The notes beneath the pieces are model-generated. The model saw only the letters and a list, made by a program, of their open reading frames with translations. It was not told where the DNA came from and did not search any database. Shown here in pieces: positions 7,304 to 20,616 of a stretch of 53,693 nt of DNA (positions are counted from its first letter, which is position 1; every line of letters starts with the position of its first letter). Origin of the DNA: a virus; UHGV virus genome UHGV-0129084; one strand, written 5' to 3'. Position numbers and translations under genes: made by a program.

Positions 7304-8173
7304 TTATTTTTTGATCATTCCGTACATTGCTGAGGCTTTAGCTTGCTCAACAAAGGAGGATAAATCGACATCACTATAGGTTGGAGACTTCAGAATCTTT
7401 CCATCGGAAATTCGAAAACCGATCATCTTATCGGTGCCATCAGCATGGCGAAATCCCAGGTCAGAAGAGTCGTATTTGCAGTTGGCCACAGCATGGCGAC
7501 GCTCTTCGGCATCTGCAGGCCATAATTTTGTCATGTTGGACCGATGAATTTCGCCAACCAGCTCGACGACATTGATACCGAGAAAATCAGCCAGTCGATA
7601 AGTCATCATGCACGCCACATAGATTTTGTTCATTACACGGCGCAGTTCCTGAATCAGCTCAGAATCCTTAACAGTCTTCTTCTCAAGTTTATCTGCCAGC
7701 TCTTCGAGCATACATGACGCCTCACGAGCTTCCTGAAATGGCATTGCCATATCATCGAAAACAGTGTTACCAGGCACAAAAATTGTCTGCATAAAGCGAT
7801 CAATGCTCTGTTCCTGCGTGTAATAAGTCATGCCGGTAGAAATACCACCTTTGATGGCGACCATCGTACCAACACCAACGTATAAAAAGTCGGCCATTGC
7901 ATCCAGCAGTTGCTCAATATCCCCATTCATTGCGGCTGGAATACCTTCCACTACAGCTTCTTCATGAATCAGGCTTGCACGGAGACGAAGCAGCTCTGGT
8001 GTCGGCATAACGCGTCTCGGATGCTGGAAGAGTTCATGAAACTGATCGACCATCTTGTAAATACTTTCAGTGGCTACACCATGGCCTTCATGCAACTCAT
8101 ATGGTTCTGGCTTAAATCCAATGAGTCGATCGGTGGCAAGTTTCAGGTGGTCAGTCAGTTTGGTAAAGTTCAT
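7304..8173 (-). CDS. Hypothetical protein, possible all-alpha NTP pyrophosphohydrolase (MazG-like)
   Basis: 289 aa; helical acidic patches (LIHEEAVVEG...GDIEQLLDAMADF) reminiscent of MazG/HisE-type NTP-PPases; weak. Confidence 0.35.
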   Translation of the reverse strand: MNFTKLTDHLKLATDRLIGFKPEPYELHEGHGVATESIYKMVDQFHELFQHPRRVMPTPELLRLRASLIHEEAVVEGIPAAMNGDIEQLLDAMADFLYVGVGTMVAIKGGISTGMTYYTQEQSIDRFMQTIFVPGNTVFDDMAMPFQEAREASCMLEELADKLEKKTVKDSELIQELRRVMNKIYVACMMTYRLADFLGINVVELVGEIHRSNMTKLWPADAEERRHAVANCKYDSSDLGFRHADGTDKMIGFRISDGKILKSPTYSDVDLSSFVEQAKASAMYGMIKK

Positions 8174-16431: not shown

Positions 16432-16685
16432 GTGTTTTTCCTTTGTGGTTATTTTGATACAAATTCTAAGAGCAATGAGGAGGTAAACAACTATGCATAA
16501 CGGTATGTTAGGAATGAAACGAGCGCCTTAATATACAAAATTTATAAGTAAGTATATACCTATTTATCGTGGCGCAACTTTGCTTGTCTGTATGACTAAA
16601 AATAAGACAGGATCACTGTAGAACGCTATGAGAGCTATTTTGAGGGGGCGTAGATTCTATCTACGCCAATATACGATCTGGAGGG

Positions 16686-17330
16686 TTACAGCGCGTCAGT
16701 GGGCTTTTTACGCGCTGCATTTATGCTTATGACGCCAGCTTTTGGACGTGGGTCAACAAGGTTAAGCTCTTCTTCACTGTGGTATTCGAGGTCGAACTCA
16801 CGTTTTACATGTCTGATGTAGATTGCGGTGAGCAGGCTATCTTTGGTCAGAAAGTGTCCGTAGGATTTGCGGATCACTTCTTCTACCTTCTCGATTTTCT
16901 CACCACCCATACAGAGATGATTAAACCGGCTGTGTTTCCGCAACATTTCGTCTACTGGGCCTGAGTAAACCTTGTCTACTTTCCCAAAACGGATGATTTT
17001 CCCTGTGTCTGCGGATACGAGGCAAATCAGCTTGTCTGGTGATAAACGATCTCGCCACGTCACACCTGAACGGAGTGTGTTGAAGTAGGGAGCATCCAAT
17101 CCGATGATCGGTTTGCGAAATGCGAGCAATGGAACGTACCTGATGCAACTGTTTAAATGAAAATTCACACCAGCCTTATCAAGTTTAATTCTGGTTTCGT
17201 AGATCGGGCACTTCGCCGCTATACCGCAGATGTCACAAAGCAACTTCTGCTTATTCAGGTTGGAATTTGATTCGATAGTGTAGGAGCCGTCCTCAAGACG
17301 ACGAACCCAGCGCGTGCGTTTTAGATCCAT
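16686..17330 (-). CDS. Hypothetical protein (214 aa)
   Basis: Intact ORF adjacent to the replicon origin; no recognised motif. Confidence 0.4.
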   Translation of the reverse strand: MDLKRTRWVRRLEDGSYTIESNSNLNKQKLLCDICGIAAKCPIYETRIKLDKAGVNFHLNSCIRYVPLLAFRKPIIGLDAPYFNTLRSGVTWRDRLSPDKLICLVSADTGKIIRFGKVDKVYSGPVDEMLRKHSRFNHLCMGGEKIEKVEEVIRKSYGHFLTKDSLLTAIYIRHVKREFDLEYHSEEELNLVDPRPKAGVISINAARKKPTDAL

Positions 17331-17430
17331 AATCGTTTTTTCAGTAGTTATTGGCCGATGCTACGATAACTCATTAGGCATACCTTAATCTGCATTTGCC
17401 TGTTTACTTATCCCAGTTATCCACTGGATA

Positions 17431-17488
17431 GATCCAAATAAGAGATCCCAAGTAAGATCAAATAGAAGATCCAAAGAGATCCCCGATC
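17431..17488. promoter_or_regulatory. Cluster of six GATC (Dam) sites in AGATCC(A/C) heptamer-like repeats
   Basis: GATC at 17431, 17444, 17456, 17468, 17478, 17485 within 58 bp; resembles the methylation-sensitive GATC cluster of P1-type origins. Confidence 0.6.
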
Positions 17489-17529
17489 GCCTCTAGCCGT
17501 TGCGGTTACTGGTCTGAAAGGGTGTTGCC

Positions 17530-17631
17530 ATCCACTATGGAGAGCAAAGAAACCTCTGTAGAGAGCTGAATAACCGCTATGAAGAGTAAAACAACCACTC
17601 TGGAGAGCTGTATATATCCACTGTAGAGAGT
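17530..17631 (+). repeat. Iteron array A (5 copies, 21-23 bp period)
   Basis: 16-mers ATCCACTATGGAGAGC, AACCTCTGTAGAGAGC, AACCGCTATGAAGAGT, AACCACTCTGGAGAGC, ATCCACTGTAGAGAGT starting at 17530, 17551, 17572, 17593, 17616. Confidence 0.7.
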
Positions 17632-17742
17632 AGAGCACATTGTCTTTTATGGATAACTTAATGACTTAATTCTTCATTAACATACTGATATACATAGATA
17701 TATTTTAAACTCTACTCTTAGTCATGATTCTTATGTCCTTAA

Positions 17743-17797
17743 ATATCCACAGAAGAGTAGAGTTACCTGTTCTTGAAATCCTCTGATTTTTATCCAC
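17743..17797 (+). promoter_or_regulatory. Two DnaA-box-like 9-mers in an AT-rich stretch
   Basis: ATATCCACA at 17743-17751 and TTATCCACA at 17789-17797 (consensus TTATCCACA) inside the AT-rich region 17640-17800. Confidence 0.55.
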
Positions 17798-17910
17798 AGG
17801 CCCGATCCAGTAATTCAGATCACAAAGAGAACCAAATAGACCCATAAAGACCCAATAAGATCCCCGCCCACCTCAAACCGTTGTGCCATCTGCCTTCAGA
17901 CATGATCGAT

Positions 17911-18032
17911 ATCCACTATAGAGAGCGAATAATCCACTATAGGGAGCAAAGCAACCACTATAGAGAGGAGAAAAACCACTATAGACGGTAGGATAACCGC
18001 TGTGATGAGTGCTACTATCCACTGTAATCAGC
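17911..18032 (+). repeat. Iteron array B (6 copies, 21-22 bp period) immediately upstream of repA
   Basis: ATCCACTATAGAGAGC, ATCCACTATAGGGAGC, AACCACTATAGAGAGG, AACCACTATAGACGGT, AACCGCTGTGATGAGT, ATCCACTGTAATCAGC starting at 17911, 17932, 17953, 17974, 17995, 18017. Confidence 0.75.
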
Positions 18033-18072
18033 AAAGGCCACCAAAGCCGTCGAATAACAAGAGACATTTGGA

Positions 18073-19128
18073 ATGAGCGAAAACGGCAATAAAAACATAG
18101 CGATCGTTGAAGCATTTTCAGAAACAGATAAAAAGACAGGCGAAGTTGTTACGTTGGTTCCTAACACTAATAACACTGTTCAGCCTGTTGCTTTGATGCG
18201 TCTGGGCCTCTTCGTTCCGACGCTGAAATCGACATCCAGAGGAAGAAAGGGGCAAATGGTCTCTATGGATGCCTCTGCTGAACTCAAACAGCTGTCTCTG
18301 GCAAAAGCCGAAGGGTACGAAGACATAAGGATCTCTGGCCTTCGGCTTGATATGGATAACGACTTTAAAACGTGGGTGGGAATAATCCACGCGTTTGCCA
18401 AACACAAGGTCGTTGGCGATACTGTCACGTTGCCGTTCGTTGAGTTTGTAAGGCTGTGTGGCATTCCGACCGCCAGGTCATCAGCGAAGTTACGCAAACG
18501 CCTGGACAGTTCGCTAAGCCGTATTGCCACAAATACCATCTCGTTCCGTAGCAAAGGCTCTGATGAGTTTTACGTAACGCATCTTGTGCAAACGGCAAAA
18601 TATAGTGTCAAGCACGATACGGTCGAACTGAAAGCAGATCCCAAGATTTTCGAACTCTACCAGTTCGACAAAAAGGTTCTTCTGCAACTCCGGGCTATAA
18701 ACGAACTCTCAAGAAAAGAATCCGCTCAGGCGCTTTATACTTTTATTGAAAGTTTGCCGCCTGATCCGGCACCAATATCACTAGCCCGTTTACGCGCCAG
18801 ACTTAATCTGACAAGTCGCACTATTACTCAGAATGCGACGGTAAGAAAGGCTATGGAACAGCTGCGAGAGATAGGATATCTCGATTACACGGAAGTTAAG
18901 CGCGGAAACTCGGTCTACTTCGTCATCCACTATAGGCGGCCAAAGTTACGCCAGGCACAAATATCAACAAAAATCGATAATGATGAGACGGAATATAGCC
19001 TCCCAGATGAGAATCAAGATGACATTATCGACGTTGTGCCTGACGAAAAAGAAGGCAAAATGGTCATGTTGAGTAAAGAAGAACTGGCGCTTCTCGAAGA
19101 GTTGCGCAAGGCAAAGACTCGCAAATAG
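18073..19128 (+). CDS. repA: Plasmid replication initiator RepA (P1/RepFIB-type, iteron-binding)
   Basis: 351 aa; [41 protein letters not shown] match what I recall of P1 RepA; flanked on both sides by iteron arrays. Confidence 0.8.
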
Positions 19129-19130
19129 CC

Positions 19131-19570
19131 CAACCACTGTAGTTAGTAGTAAGGCTCACTATCCACTGTAGTGAGCCTTACTTATATCTGTAATTCGCTA
19201 TCCACTATAGTGAGTATCGTTATCTGTTGATAACCACTGTAGGCAGTAGAATGCAAATACTGAATTAAATGTTAGTGATCACTAACACTGATGAAACAAG
19301 GGCTGCGAGGTTAGTGGTCACTGGGTATCTTGGAAAATTTACTGTCTATAGTGGTTGTTGTCGCCCTCATCTTTGAGCGTATCCACTGTGGCGAGTGGAT
19401 ATCCACTGAAAACAGCAAAGGCTTACTCACCATAGTGGTTGTTTGATGCGAATGAAAGGCTGTCTACTCGCTACAGTGGTTAGCAGATATGTAGGAAGGT
19501 TTTGTTACTGACTACAGTGGATAATGAGCTGGATACGAATGCGGTGAGCTGGCTACTCACCGCAGTGGTT
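19131..19570. repeat. Iteron array C downstream of repA (incA-like), copies in both orientations
   Basis: About 12 CCACTGTAG / CCACTATAG / CTACAGTGG / CCATAGTGG / CGCAGTGG cores, several embedded in short palindromes (e.g. AAGGCTCACT..AGTGAGCCTT). Confidence 0.65.
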
Positions 19571-19789
19571 GGTGCTATTAGTGTATTTTCTTCAACAGAC
19601 CCCAAAGTGTTCCGGCTTTTGTAGTCAGTTTTCCTGTTTCTGGATCGTACATACGCTATTCACGCCGCTGGTGGACGATATACCCATCTTCACGTTCCAG
19701 ACGCTCAAGAATGCCAGGCTGCTTGAAACCCTTAGCACGCCAGTAGCCGCTTGTTTTCTCGATTTCCAGACCTGCCAGTGTTAATGCCA

Positions 19790-20125
19790 TTATCCAACCT
19801 CCTTGCAGTCATCGAAAAGGTAGCTTTGCTGAGAAGCGTGAACGCCATAGAAGCCCTTGTATTTGTTGTATACGAAGTGGTCTTCTCCGACGCCGGTTAA
19901 TTTGCCATTACGATTTGTGAGATATGGGGATGACAACACTCGATCGTCACGCACAACATAGAACTGGTCGCCGCTGTCTACGACCATCGCTCCATATGGT
20001 GCTTTTATGACGTCGGTAAGAGCGCCATTCTTAACGTCGGCTACAGACATTTCACACTGATAAACAGTGGTGTCGGCCACAACGATCGAAGAAAGAAACA
20101 ACAGCGCGAATGGGATGGTCTTCAT
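19790..20125 (-). CDS. Secreted hypothetical protein (111 aa)
   Basis: N-terminal signal-peptide-like MKTIPFALLFLSSIVVA; start ATG overlaps the stop of the upstream small membrane ORF (ATGA). Confidence 0.5.
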   Translation of the reverse strand: MKTIPFALLFLSSIVVADTTVYQCEMSVADVKNGALTDVIKAPYGAMVVDSGDQFYVVRDDRVLSSPYLTNRNGKLTGVGEDHFVYNKYKGFYGVHASQQSYLFDDCKEVG

Positions 20126-20301
20126 GCTGCCACCTCTTTGATTACATCAAATGCTGAATTAAATACGAGCACGATAGCCAAAGCGTTTATGACTACGTCG
20201 TGCACCGGGGAAAAGACTTTACGAATGACACCAGTGAAAATGCAGTCGATGACAAAAGCTATTGAAACGATGAGTAACAAGTATTCAATAAAAATCTTCA
20301 T
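20122..20301 (-). CDS. Small hydrophobic membrane protein (59 aa), not in the supplied ORF track
   Basis: Hand-translated MKIFIEYLLLIVSIAFVIDCIFTGVIRKVFSPVHDVVINALAIVLVFNSAFDVIKEVAA; below the 60-aa track cutoff; translationally coupled to the downstream secreted protein. Confidence 0.35.
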   Translation of the reverse strand: MKIFIEYLLLIVSIAFVIDCIFTGVIRKVFSPVHDVVINALAIVLVFNSAFDVIKEVAA

Positions 20302-20340
20302 GATAGGTAGATACTAACTTATATAAACTTTACTGTAAAC

Positions 20341-20616
20341 TCACTCAAAAGTGCTGATGCTTAAAATACGCTCAAGATGTTCAGCATCTTCATTACTGAT
20401 TTGTTGAGTCTCTTCTACGTACCAACAGTTGCCGTTATGCCAACAAACACCATCATCATCAACCATCACTGAATCAGCGTCATGACCCGTATATTCAACA
20501 AGAGTACGCTGGATCAGCGCGTCAGTTTCTTCATCGTTAAGGCCATCGACTTTGACCATAAAAAGCGGAAACACGTCATAGACAGTGCTGGTAACGATTC
20601 GAACTAAAACTCTCAT
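20341..20616 (-). CDS. Hypothetical protein (91 aa)
   Basis: Intact ORF with conserved AAGGAAAAACACATG-type initiation region. Confidence 0.4.
   Translation of the reverse strand: MRVLVRIVTSTVYDVFPLFMVKVDGLNDEETDALIQRTLVEYTGHDADSVMVDDDGVCWHNGNCWYVEETQQISNEDAEHLERILSISTFE

Follow-up and report, generated by a model that had tools for sequence, protein, structure and literature searches.

The replicon and its initiator gene

The stretch of viral DNA analysed here (UHGV virus genome UHGV-0129084, 53,693 nt, hereafter the window) carries at 17417–19572 a replicon that, judged from its sequence, maintains an SSU5-like phage-plasmid in its plasmid-prophage state and belongs to the RepFIB/P1 family of iteron-controlled theta replicons. 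Two upstream modules, each with its own iterons (arrays A and B), are followed by the initiator gene repA and a further iteron array, array C; that membership of the RepFIB/P1 family, a duplicated origin cassette and an incA-like array C hold jointly is regarded as highly probable. The window is 99.8% identical to the phage-plasmid Cyrano/pLF82 and, at the same level, to about 66 plasmids of E. coli and E. albertii typed as IncFIB (PLSDB); identity to SSU5, pHCM2 and pMT1 is about 81–83%. Cyrano is maintained at ~5.5 copies per cell (PMC9928086).

The repA gene (18073–19128, plus strand) is predicted to encode an iteron-binding initiator of 351 aa. Its product matches Pfam Rep3_N (1.3e-10) and Rep3_C (1.3e-4), both above cutoff, profiles that place it among the Rep_3 (WH1-WH2) winged-helix initiators. 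It is 100% identical to the RepA of Cyrano, 91% to that of SSU5, 60% to that of F RepFIB (over 329 aa, E 5e-143) and 47.5% to that of P1/P7 (E 1e-71). A preliminary description of this DNA had recognized a complete P1-like origin; because RepA is homologous to P1/P7 RepA and the stretch of DnaA box and GATC sites shares DNA homology with the annotated core of P1 oriR, the term “P1-like” is correct, and so is “incA-like” for array C. The family is thus of the P1 type as proposed, but the closest characterised relative is RepFIB rather than P1 (RepA 60% versus 47.5%).

A scan of 16500–20500 against Rfam (E<=1) returned zero matches; there is therefore no sign of RNA-based control. The GC-skew profile of the whole window tracks gene orientation, without a polarity switch at the origin, and was discarded as an uninformative origin marker.

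Two copies of one origin cassette

Upstream of repA lie two tandem, collinear cassettes of the P1 type, module 1 (17417–17632) and module 2 (17790–18033), which align collinearly with each other and have the same order of parts: DnaA box, GATC repeats, GC spacer, iterons. The region had previously been read as one linear origin running from the GATC cluster through array A and an AT-rich DnaA-box region to array B; this reading does not survive the presence of two cassette copies and of a natural 2.96-kb insertion between them.

Module 1 begins with a putative DnaA box, TTATCCACT (17417–17425, plus strand), which the preliminary description lacked. It is identical to the second 9-mer of the annotated DnaA binding site of P1 and opens a 21-nt stretch, TTATCCACTGGATAGATCCAA, identical to P1 oriR; in relatives the box reads TTATTCACA, which fits the consensus TTATNCACA. 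Short repeats follow at 17431–17488, a putative Dam/SeqA-sensitive unwinding region, whose six GATC (Dam) sites start at 17431, 17444, 17456, 17468, 17478 and 17485 and, as described earlier, lie within 58 bp. No other 62-bp stretch of the 53.7-kb window holds at least four GATCs. The Poisson probability of such a cluster is ~3e-7 per position, or ~0.016 after multiplication by the window length, and one of 200 windows simulated with a Markov-1 model reached six GATCs. Among nine relatives the tetramers vary at 0 of 24 positions versus 15 of 39 (38%) between them (Fisher p = 4e-4). Taken alone the cluster is moderately unusual; once conservation is added it is decisive. The repeats are homologous to the five annotated Dam sites of P1 plus one decayed GGTC, and as a duplex they are less stable (~-47 kcal/mol per 40 nt versus a window mean of -55) than the repeats of module 2.

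Next comes a GC-rich spacer (17489–17527, 57% GC), placed as in the origins of P1, Klebsiella, Shigella and SJ46, and then array A (17528–17632, plus strand) with the expected five direct iterons; their cores start at 17530, 17551, 17572, 17593 and 17616, a computed phasing of 21, 21, 21 and 23 bp. Matrix scores are 22–28 bits. All relatives have the same number of iterons at the same spacing, and 10% of core positions are variable as against 36% of inter-iteron bases. As a whole, module 1 is 71–73% identical to single-origin cassettes and only 62% to module 2.

Module 2 opens with a putative DnaA box of exact consensus, TTATCCACA (17790–17798, plus strand; TTATACACA in relatives), which falls opposite the module 1 box when the two modules are aligned. 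Of two DnaA-box 9-mers reported earlier, this is the one placed at 17789–17797: an exact box does exist, at 17790–17798. The other (17743–17751) reads ATATCCACA, one mismatch from consensus, and TTATCCCCA in relatives. Because exact matches to TTATNCACA in the window do not exceed chance (2 found versus 2.0 expected), it is homology and conservation, not number, that argue for the DnaA boxes.

The short repeats of module 2 (17804–17862) are collinear with those of module 1 and keep three of six GATCs (17804, 17818, 17859), the others having decayed to GAAC (17829) and GACC (17839, 17849). Their tetramers, decayed ones included, vary at 1 of 24 positions versus 10 of 40 between them (p = 0.04); since the decayed state is itself conserved, this suggests that these repeats are probably still functional. 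Spacer 2 (17863–17908) has an invariant GATC at 17904. Array B (17909–18033, plus strand) consists of six direct iterons with cores at 17911, 17932, 17953, 17974, 17995 and 18017, includes the best matches to the iteron consensus, and is identical in iteron number and spacing in relatives. The 21–22 bp phasing ascribed to these six copies was borne out by computation (21, 21, 21, 21, 22), as was the distance of 41 bp to the repA ATG (last core end 18032, ATG 18073).

Array B is the probable operator/promoter region of repA. Its last two iterons and the repA leader are almost invariant among relatives, which is suggestive only of an autoregulated rep promoter inside the rep-proximal iterons. 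The -10 element of P1 PrepA sits between the last two incC iterons, and TACTAT at 18013–18018 would correspond to it by position; the promoter scan gave this no confirmation. With the sigma-70 consensus, no conserved match was found in array B: the sole one (17906–17933) is absent from relatives and was rejected as PrepA, as was the best plus-strand match (17677–17704), which is located in the non-conserved inter-module spacer.

That spacer (17633–17789) is AT-rich in the Cyrano lineage only, with 29% GC versus 40–44% in SSU5, pHCM2, pMT1 and the Enterobacter relatives, and it holds the one-mismatch box at 17743–17751, which also resembles a degenerate iteron. At -41 kcal per 40 nt it is the least stable duplex of the window, and it is also the least conserved segment, with 45% variable columns versus 21% and 22% in the two modules; being lineage-specific and least conserved, the AT-rich stretch is unlikely to be a conserved unwinding element. 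In pM-64-197, a natural single-replicon plasmid, ISEcp1 has inserted at 17774–17778, at the boundary of the spacer and the module 2 box; the insertion of 2.96 kb leaves module 2, repA and array C contiguous and displaces module 1 by 3 kb. It shows that the modules are separable and says nothing on which of them fires.

The two-module layout was found in nine of nine clade members examined and in one Pantoea plasmid. The same cassette is present in F RepFIB, in the SJ46 type and in Klebsiella and Shigella replicons, but these, like P1, have a single module, and the replicon described here departs from the single-cassette architecture of P1, F and SJ46. Co-occurrence of the modules was measured by per-genus record counts for array A versus array B; the two queries gave identical counts among 72,556 plasmids, and the modules occur together in about 335 plasmids. 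“Places per record” was dropped as a count of one-module plasmids because cross-matches between the arrays are detected inconsistently. Of the two modules of the Pantoea plasmid, it is the one next to rep that is closer to the canonical form; short length and high divergence of the cassettes prevent a decision on whether the Pantoea duplication and that of the SSU5 clade are orthologous. The kind of replicon is already known, whereas the duplicated-cassette architecture is possibly undescribed: no description was found in the accessible literature, and an earlier one may exist.

The downstream control array

Array C (19130–19572) is predicted to be an incA-like copy-control array. It had been credited with about 12 copies in both orientations; both orientations are indeed present, and the number by matrix scan is 11, with six sites on the plus strand (19130, 19159, 19198, 19230, 19379, 19399) and five on the minus strand (19340, 19424, 19465, 19506, 19554), spaced about 30–41 bp. 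A matrix built from arrays A and B alone gives them 17–26 bits; the best score outside the arrays in the window is 12.2 bits. The latter belongs to an iteron-like site within repA (18923), which was set aside as within chance, simulations yielding 1–9 matches of at least 8 bits per window. Cyrano has 12 sites and the window lacks one 40-bp unit; among relatives copy number ranges from 11 to 15, in 40-bp steps. The likeness to incA seen earlier is well founded: as in P1, the array begins 2 nt past the repA stop codon, and orientation pattern, spacing and variable copy number match. For RepFIB it was shown experimentally that the downstream iterons are the control/incompatibility determinant and the upstream ones origin-associated (PMC11983097).

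A 16-bp palindrome, GTTAGTGATCACTAAC (19271–19286), was considered as a separate operator and rejected as lineage-specific; the conserved part at this place is a 12-mer direct repeat that resembles a degenerate inverted iteron.

A methyltransferase of the Dam family

The Dam-like methyltransferase gene noted at 1703–2296, 15 kb from the origin, lies on the minus strand and encodes a small phage N6-adenine methyltransferase of the Dam family, matching TIGR01712 phage_N6A_met at 8.4e-33 (113 bits, cutoff 97). Its translation contains the NPPY catalytic motif (FLNPPYS) and is 39% identical to Stx-phage methyltransferases. TIGR01712 is the small Dam family of the T1, HP1 and Stx-phage type, and to judge from the characterised members of this family the enzyme presumably recognizes GATC. 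It is plausible that this putative GATC methyltransferase could methylate the origin independently of host Dam.

Proposed mechanism and roles of the two modules

Homology is the basis on which RepA binding, firing of the origin, dependence on Dam and control of copy number are predicted for this replicon. By analogy with P1 and RepFIB, RepA monomers would bind the 21-bp-phased iterons beside the host-factor cassette, and the DNA would open at the cassette of DnaA box and GATC-bearing short repeats, where re-initiation would be gated by Dam methylation and by SeqA binding to the GATCs. RepA on the rep-proximal iterons would repress its own promoter, while array C would titrate RepA and pair with (“handcuff”) the origin iterons, thereby setting the copy number.

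Only a weak case can be made for assigning roles to the two modules. In the division that is tentatively preferred, though at somewhat less than even probability, module 1 would be the main Dam/SeqA-gated origin and module 2 mainly the repA operator/promoter, possibly also a weaker, methylation-poor secondary origin. Six invariant GATCs, greater closeness to single-origin cassettes and a less stable duplex argue for module 1 as the canonical core. Against it counts that the scan predicted no convincing sigma-70 promoter in array B. Further, in every relative with a single module (P1, F, Klebsiella, Shigella and SJ46) the place of module 2 is taken by a cassette that acts as both origin and operator, the DnaA box of module 2 is perfect, its decayed repeats are conserved, as under purifying selection, and in Pantoea the proximal module is the more canonical. 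These latter points lend weight to a rather less probable reading in which module 2 would by itself serve as functional origin and operator, the way P1 and F have it, and module 1 would be accessory, an array that titrates RepA or handcuffs and a SeqA-binding GATC cluster that tightens copy control; the best-consensus iterons of array B and the arrangement in pM-64-197, where only module 1 has been moved 3 kb away, speak for it as well. However, module 2 has lost three of its six GATC repeats, whereas in each of the five single-module origins examined the number of GATCs does not fall below five; further, a pure titration array would need no invariant DnaA box, six invariant GATCs and GC spacer, and array C, a true control array, has none of them.

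It is also conceivable, if unlikely, that the two modules are alternative origins, each of them active with the same RepA, module 1 strongly and module 2 weakly gated by Dam/SeqA, an arrangement that might provide robustness or condition-dependent initiation. Each has a complete set of parts, the two are equally conserved and always co-occur, and for P1 a second DnaA-box array able to serve a secondary-origin function has been described (PMC4980987); yet two active iteron origins at a distance of 370 bp should hinder one another through RepA-mediated pairing. Very improbable is a single composite origin that would work as one whole, with GATC cluster, array A, array B and, as its unwinding element, the AT-rich DnaA-box region: the spacer with its exceptionally unstable duplex is flanked by iterons and by the DnaA box at 17790, but its AT-richness is a feature missing in SSU5, pHCM2, pMT1 and Enterobacter, its sequence is the least conserved, its flanks are paralogous copies of one cassette, and in pM-64-197 the natural 2.96-kb insertion (at 17778) parts it from the module 2 box.

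Alongside the preferred division, it may be speculated, with little expectation of being right, that the duplication has split functions: the upstream copy would be the fully Dam/SeqA-gated origin, the rep-proximal copy, with half of its GATCs gone, would serve as operator and secondary origin with little dependence on methylation, and the element's own methyltransferase would tune the balance. If true, there would be two modes of initiation, for instance one for tightly sequestered maintenance and one for establishment, be it after infection or in low-Dam hosts.

Implications

pMT1 of Yersinia pestis, pHCM2 of Salmonella Typhi and the phage-plasmids of the SSU5/Cyrano type in E. coli, Enterobacter and Citrobacter all depend on this replicon for their maintenance. 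ESBL genes are present on some of these plasmids, and in pM-64-197 blaCTX-M-64 resides inside the origin region. The list of parts indicates which segment might serve incompatibility-based curing; for RepFIB these are the control iterons downstream of rep (PMC11983097). As array C gains or loses 40-bp units, it is predicted that copy number, and with it the dosage of cargo genes, can drift. The duplicated cassette offers a natural system for the evolution of a Dam/SeqA-gated origin after duplication; the general picture of iteron plasmid replication is unchanged.

Comparison with known replicons

SSU5, pHCM2, pMT1 (pFra) and Cyrano (pLF82) have the same replicon, with two modules, repA and array C collinear at 81–99.8% identity; arrays A and B are identical in iteron number and spacing, while array C has 12–15 iterons versus 11 here. 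The SSU5-like phage-plasmids of the Klebsiella pKPHS1 type and the Shigella/E. coli pMHMC-002 type share the phage backbone neighbourhood (a 645-nt upstream gene and a downstream ‘Cra’ gene) and a host-factor cassette of ~81% DNA identity; unlike the present replicon they have a single cassette, iterons of the sequence TATGCTGTCAGCGGT and a RepA that is only ~50% identical.

For classical RepFIB, F itself served as comparator; the ‘RepFIB’ of SJ46 was rejected as a stand-in, since it is the replicon of P1-like phage-plasmids of ~96 kb. RepFIB (F, P307, pO157) has the closest characterised initiator and the same upstream host-factor cassette, which in F consists of TTATCCACA, five GATCs and the spacer, and as here iteron arrays lie on both sides of rep. 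F RepFIB differs in having one upstream cassette instead of two, and the iterons are unrelated (..ATAAGCTGT.. in F versus ..ACCACTATAGAGAG.. here). The window repA starts with ATG, whereas CTG is reported for RepFIB (PMC11983097).

P1/P7 (oriR-incC, repA, incA), also phage-plasmids in the case of P1, share the core of DnaA box and GATC repeats as homologous DNA, 21 nt being identical, and the GC spacer; the five incC iterons are spaced 21, 21, 21 and 22 bp, a phasing equal to that found here. As array C does, P1 incA abuts the repA stop codon and has proximal direct and distal inverted iterons 31–41 bp apart. P1 differs in its single cassette, in which two DnaA boxes stand in tandem, in the further boxes of its repA leader, in its 19-bp iterons of different sequence, and in a RepA without the ~60-aa acidic C-terminal tail of the window RepA.

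Dam dependence has reportedly been published for P1 oriR and for REPI, by Abeles and Austin in 1987, Abeles et al. in 1993 and Gammie and Crosa in 1991, REPI being the pColV-K30 replicon that the last-named authors reportedly studied. In iteron origins with several clusters, such as RK2 oriV, copy number is modulated by iteron clusters that lie outside the minimal origin. Removal of iteron 10 of RK2, for example, leads to a higher copy number (PMC11983097). Such extra clusters of the RK2 type are bare iterons, whereas the replicon described here has a second full cassette of DnaA box, GATC repeats, spacer and iterons.

The element, its initiator and its methyltransferase

Over 2.4 kb around the origin the window shares 99.8% identity with Escherichia phage Cyrano, the phage-plasmid pLF82, and 83% with Salmonella phage SSU5; identity is at least 99% to about 66 plasmids of about 107 kb from E. 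coli, E. albertii and Shigella, typed in PLSDB as IncFIB and non-mobilizable, and about 81% to Yersinia pestis pMT1, S. Typhi pHCM2 and plasmids of Enterobacter and Citrobacter. These identities mark the window as an SSU5-like phage-plasmid and the origin region as its predicted plasmid-maintenance replicon. The kind of replicon is well known, and databases already contain nearly the same sequence, its repA annotated.

The product of repA (18073-19128), 351 residues long, carries Rep3_N and Rep3_C, Pfam domains of the winged-helix type found in initiators that bind iterons. It is 47.5% identical to the RepA proteins of P1 and P7 (E 1e-71) and closer to that of plasmid F RepFIB (60% over 329 residues, E 5e-143); a search of solved structures by sequence gave no match. 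Its C-terminal tail of about 60 residues (~290-351; 18940-19128) is acidic and coiled-coil-like, with a weak, sub-threshold Pfam match to T4_y05I_C; P1 RepA lacks such a tail, whereas F RepFIB RepA can be aligned with part of it.

The Dam-like methyltransferase of the preliminary description is present as an ORF at 1703-2296, on the minus strand (METHYLTRANSFERASE; 197 aa, NPPY motif). It scores above the equivalog cutoff of the NCBIfam model for phage N6-adenine methyltransferases and is 39% identical to enzymes of Stx phages and about 30% to those of T1-like phages. GATC is the target of the characterised enzymes in this family, and this one is a putative GATC methyltransferase; as its hosts normally have Dam of their own, the suggested independence from host Dam is not needed to explain the origin. 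Between the window and phage CMS-2020a (CP053388) the methyltransferases share 99.5% identity but the RepA proteins only 48.8%, which indicates an apparent replicon replacement on a common SSU5-like backbone.

Two tandem origin cassettes upstream of repA

Every feature from which a complete P1-like origin had been proposed at 17419-19570 is present, but the single long origin was not borne out: the upstream region consists of two tandem cassettes, with 17405-17645 aligning collinearly to 17778-18045 over the DnaA box, short repeats, spacer and every iteron. In module 1 (17417-17632) the DnaA box TTATCCACT and six GATCs are followed by a GC-rich spacer of 39 bp and then five iterons; in module 2 (17790-18033) come the DnaA box TTATCCACA, repeats with three GATCs, a spacer and six iterons.

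The cluster of six GATCs (starting at 17431, 17444, 17456, 17468, 17478 and 17485) holds up well, as no other 62-bp stretch of the window has four or more, and six were reached in 1/200 Markov-1 simulations. In module 2 GATC is kept at 17804, 17818 and 17859, while 17829 reads GAAC and 17839 and 17849 read GACC. Two DnaA boxes had been described; the exact one lies at 17790-17798, the other (17743-17751) is one mismatch away from the consensus and is not the same in relatives, and a third, at 17417-17425, had been overlooked. Exact matches to TTATNCACA (2 found, 2.0 expected) show no excess over chance.

The upstream iterons were made into a weight matrix of 19 nt for scanning; the sites of array C, downstream of repA, were outside the training set. 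Array A (17528-17632, in module 1) has five iterons spaced 21, 21, 21 and 23 bp; array B (17909-18033, in module 2) has six, and its 21-22 bp phasing was confirmed (21, 21, 21, 21, 22), the last core ending 41 bp before the repA ATG at 18073. Array C (19130-19572) does contain both orientations, six plus and five minus, at 17-26 bits, for a count of 11 rather than about 12. Outside the arrays the highest-scoring site in the 53.7 kb reaches 12.2 bits. An iteron-like TCATCCACTATAGGCGGCC at 18923-18941 within the repA coding sequence was rejected, its 12.2 bits being in the chance range and relatives falling below their 13-bit threshold.

The two-cassette layout is common to Cyrano, SSU5, pHCM2, pMT1, Enterobacter, Citrobacter and two divergent E. 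coli plasmids. The replicons of P1, F, SJ46, Klebsiella and Shigella carry only one cassette, next to rep on its upstream side, which makes the layout, on this comparison, derived. Two complete cassettes upstream of rep also occur in the 211-kb, non-phage Pantoea agglomerans pCFSAN047154_2 of the same iteron family (L013 1655-1880 and 2013-2230, with 5 and 4 GATCs, the rep-proximal copy being the more canonical); this duplication may be the same event. Searches of 72,556 plasmids with array A only or array B only gave identical record counts per genus (Escherichia 111, Enterobacter 89, Yersinia 63, Salmonella 44, Citrobacter 23, Klebsiella 3, Shigella 2), and no natural one-module derivative was visible among them. 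No description of a tandem duplication of a complete origin cassette with asymmetric GATC decay was found in the accessible literature, though an earlier one is possible.

Conservation and the possible site of initiation

In a nine-sequence alignment none of the 24 positions of the module 1 GATC tetramers varies, as against 15/39 between them (Fisher p = 4e-4); for the GAnC tetramers of module 2, decayed ones included, the figures are 1/24 and 10/40 (p = 0.04). Iteron cores are 10% (array A) and 17% (array B) variable, bases between iterons 27-36%, modules 1 and 2 overall 21% and 22%, and the inter-module spacer (17633-17789) 45%. The AT-rich stretch of the preliminary description lies in this spacer, which includes, in the Cyrano lineage only, the least stable 40-nt duplex of the window (17665-17710; at about -41 kcal/mol it lies past the 99th percentile); as the 29% GC is confined to the window and Cyrano, with 40-44% elsewhere, it is by this comparison a lineage-specific feature, not a conserved unwinding element. 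A consensus-like promoter in the spacer, TTAACA-16-TATATT (17677-17704, plus strand), was discarded, being absent as a conserved feature in relatives.

Parts, homologies and conservation pattern are direct observations; how they would work together we infer from P1 and RepFIB. RepA monomers would bind the 21-bp-phased iterons and DnaA the adjacent box, whereupon the GATC-repeat region would melt; RepA at the rep-proximal iterons would repress repA, and array C would titrate RepA and handcuff the origin. Dam methylation would be required and SeqA would sequester the hemimethylated core, both reportedly from the P1 and REPI papers. The P1 data on DnaA boxes and opening are summarized in PMC4980987.

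Both modules might instead form a single composite origin with the spacer as melting region. Against this argues pM-64-197 (NZ_MT773672.1), a naturally maintained plasmid with a single IncFIB replicon, where a 2.96-kb ISEcp1-blaCTX-M-64 transposition unit (L015 3702-6668) lies between the modules, at window ~17774-17778 with target duplication TGAAA, 11 bp before the DnaA box of module 2; module 2, repA and array C are thereby cut off from module 1 and the spacer, and with the modules thus standing apart their contiguity is dispensable.

As to which cassette fires, we lean tentatively towards module 1 as the chief origin, module 2 serving mainly as operator: module 1 keeps 6/6 GATCs, stands at 71-73% against proven or presumed single origins and at only 62% against module 2, and its repeats melt more easily than those of module 2. 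Module 2 as the only origin is somewhat less likely; in its favour are its perfect DnaA box, the constraint still seen on its decayed repeats, and a location where every single-module relative has its origin. That both are active origins appears improbable.

Array C and its proposed role in copy control

Beginning 2 nt after the repA stop, array C has four direct iterons, after which the orientation is mixed or inverted, with spacings of mostly 29-41 bp, much as P1 incA begins at the repA stop codon with three iterons in incC orientation, then inverted ones, at 31-41 bp. RepFIB downstream iterons exert displacement and incompatibility by experiment, the upstream ones being tied to the origin (PMC11983097); because of this, and of the agreement with incA in position, orientation pattern and spacing, the proposed incA-like nature of array C is well supported by analogy. 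Iteron number is constant across the clade in arrays A and B; in array C it is 11 in the window, 12 in Cyrano, 13 in pHCM2, 14 in pMT1 and 15 in SSU5. Compared with Cyrano the window is without exactly one 40-bp iteron-plus-spacer unit (L001 5126-5165; junction 19423/19424), a clean loss between two iterons. Such variation predicts copy-number differences between otherwise near-identical phage-plasmids. Cyrano is reportedly maintained at about 5.5 copies per cell (PMC9928086).

Array C has a gap of 110 bp without iterons, in which two copies of a conserved 12-mer, GTTAGTGGTYAC, stand at 19271-19282 and 19310-19321; the copies are 39 bp apart, continuing the ~40-bp periodicity, and resemble a degenerate inverted iteron core. 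The first copy forms in the window a perfect, lineage-specific 16-bp palindrome with a central GATC. Just downstream of the array, a 70-aa homolog of the 'P1 Cra / Cre-associated protein' (19578-19790, minus strand) differs from that of Cyrano by a premature stop (TGG->TAG, W45*) and N49D, and is probably a pseudogene in this copy.

Relation to P1 and other replicons

The P1 record annotates, in order, the oriR DnaA site, five Dam sites, five incC iterons with PrepA, repA and nine incA iterons. The P1 oriR core, TTATCCACTGGATAGATCCAATAATCAGGTCCATACAGATCCCAATTAGATCCATATAGATCCCTGATCG, and the window core from 17417, TTATCCACTGGATAGATCCAAATAAGAGATCCCAAGTAAGATCAAATAGAAGATCCAAAGAGATCCCCGATCG, are identical in their first 21 nt, their six short repeats pair one to one, the second being decayed to GGTC in P1, and both end GATCCC(C/T)GATCG before a GC-rich spacer; with a core DNA-homologous to oriR besides the RepA likeness, "P1-like" was an apt term. 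The cassette also lies 5' of the iterons in F RepFIB, the SJ46-type replicon of P1-like phage-plasmids, Klebsiella pKP037-2 and Shigella pMHMC-002, whose iteron sequences are nonetheless unrelated; copies are at L007 2528-2640, L008 2510-2625, L014 1198-1300 and L016 ~7880-8000 (minus strand), besides P1 oriR itself (L003). DnaA box, GATC repeats and GC spacer keep 60-81% DNA identity among replicons whose RepA is 44-60% identical to that of the window; for Klebsiella phage-plasmids the figures are about 81% and only about 51%. Because the same cassette precedes unrelated iterons, the host-factor part of the origin is, as far as these comparisons go, a conserved unit to which RepA/iteron systems of different specificity appear to have been joined; this points to the host-factor interface and the initiator specificity having evolved in a modular way.
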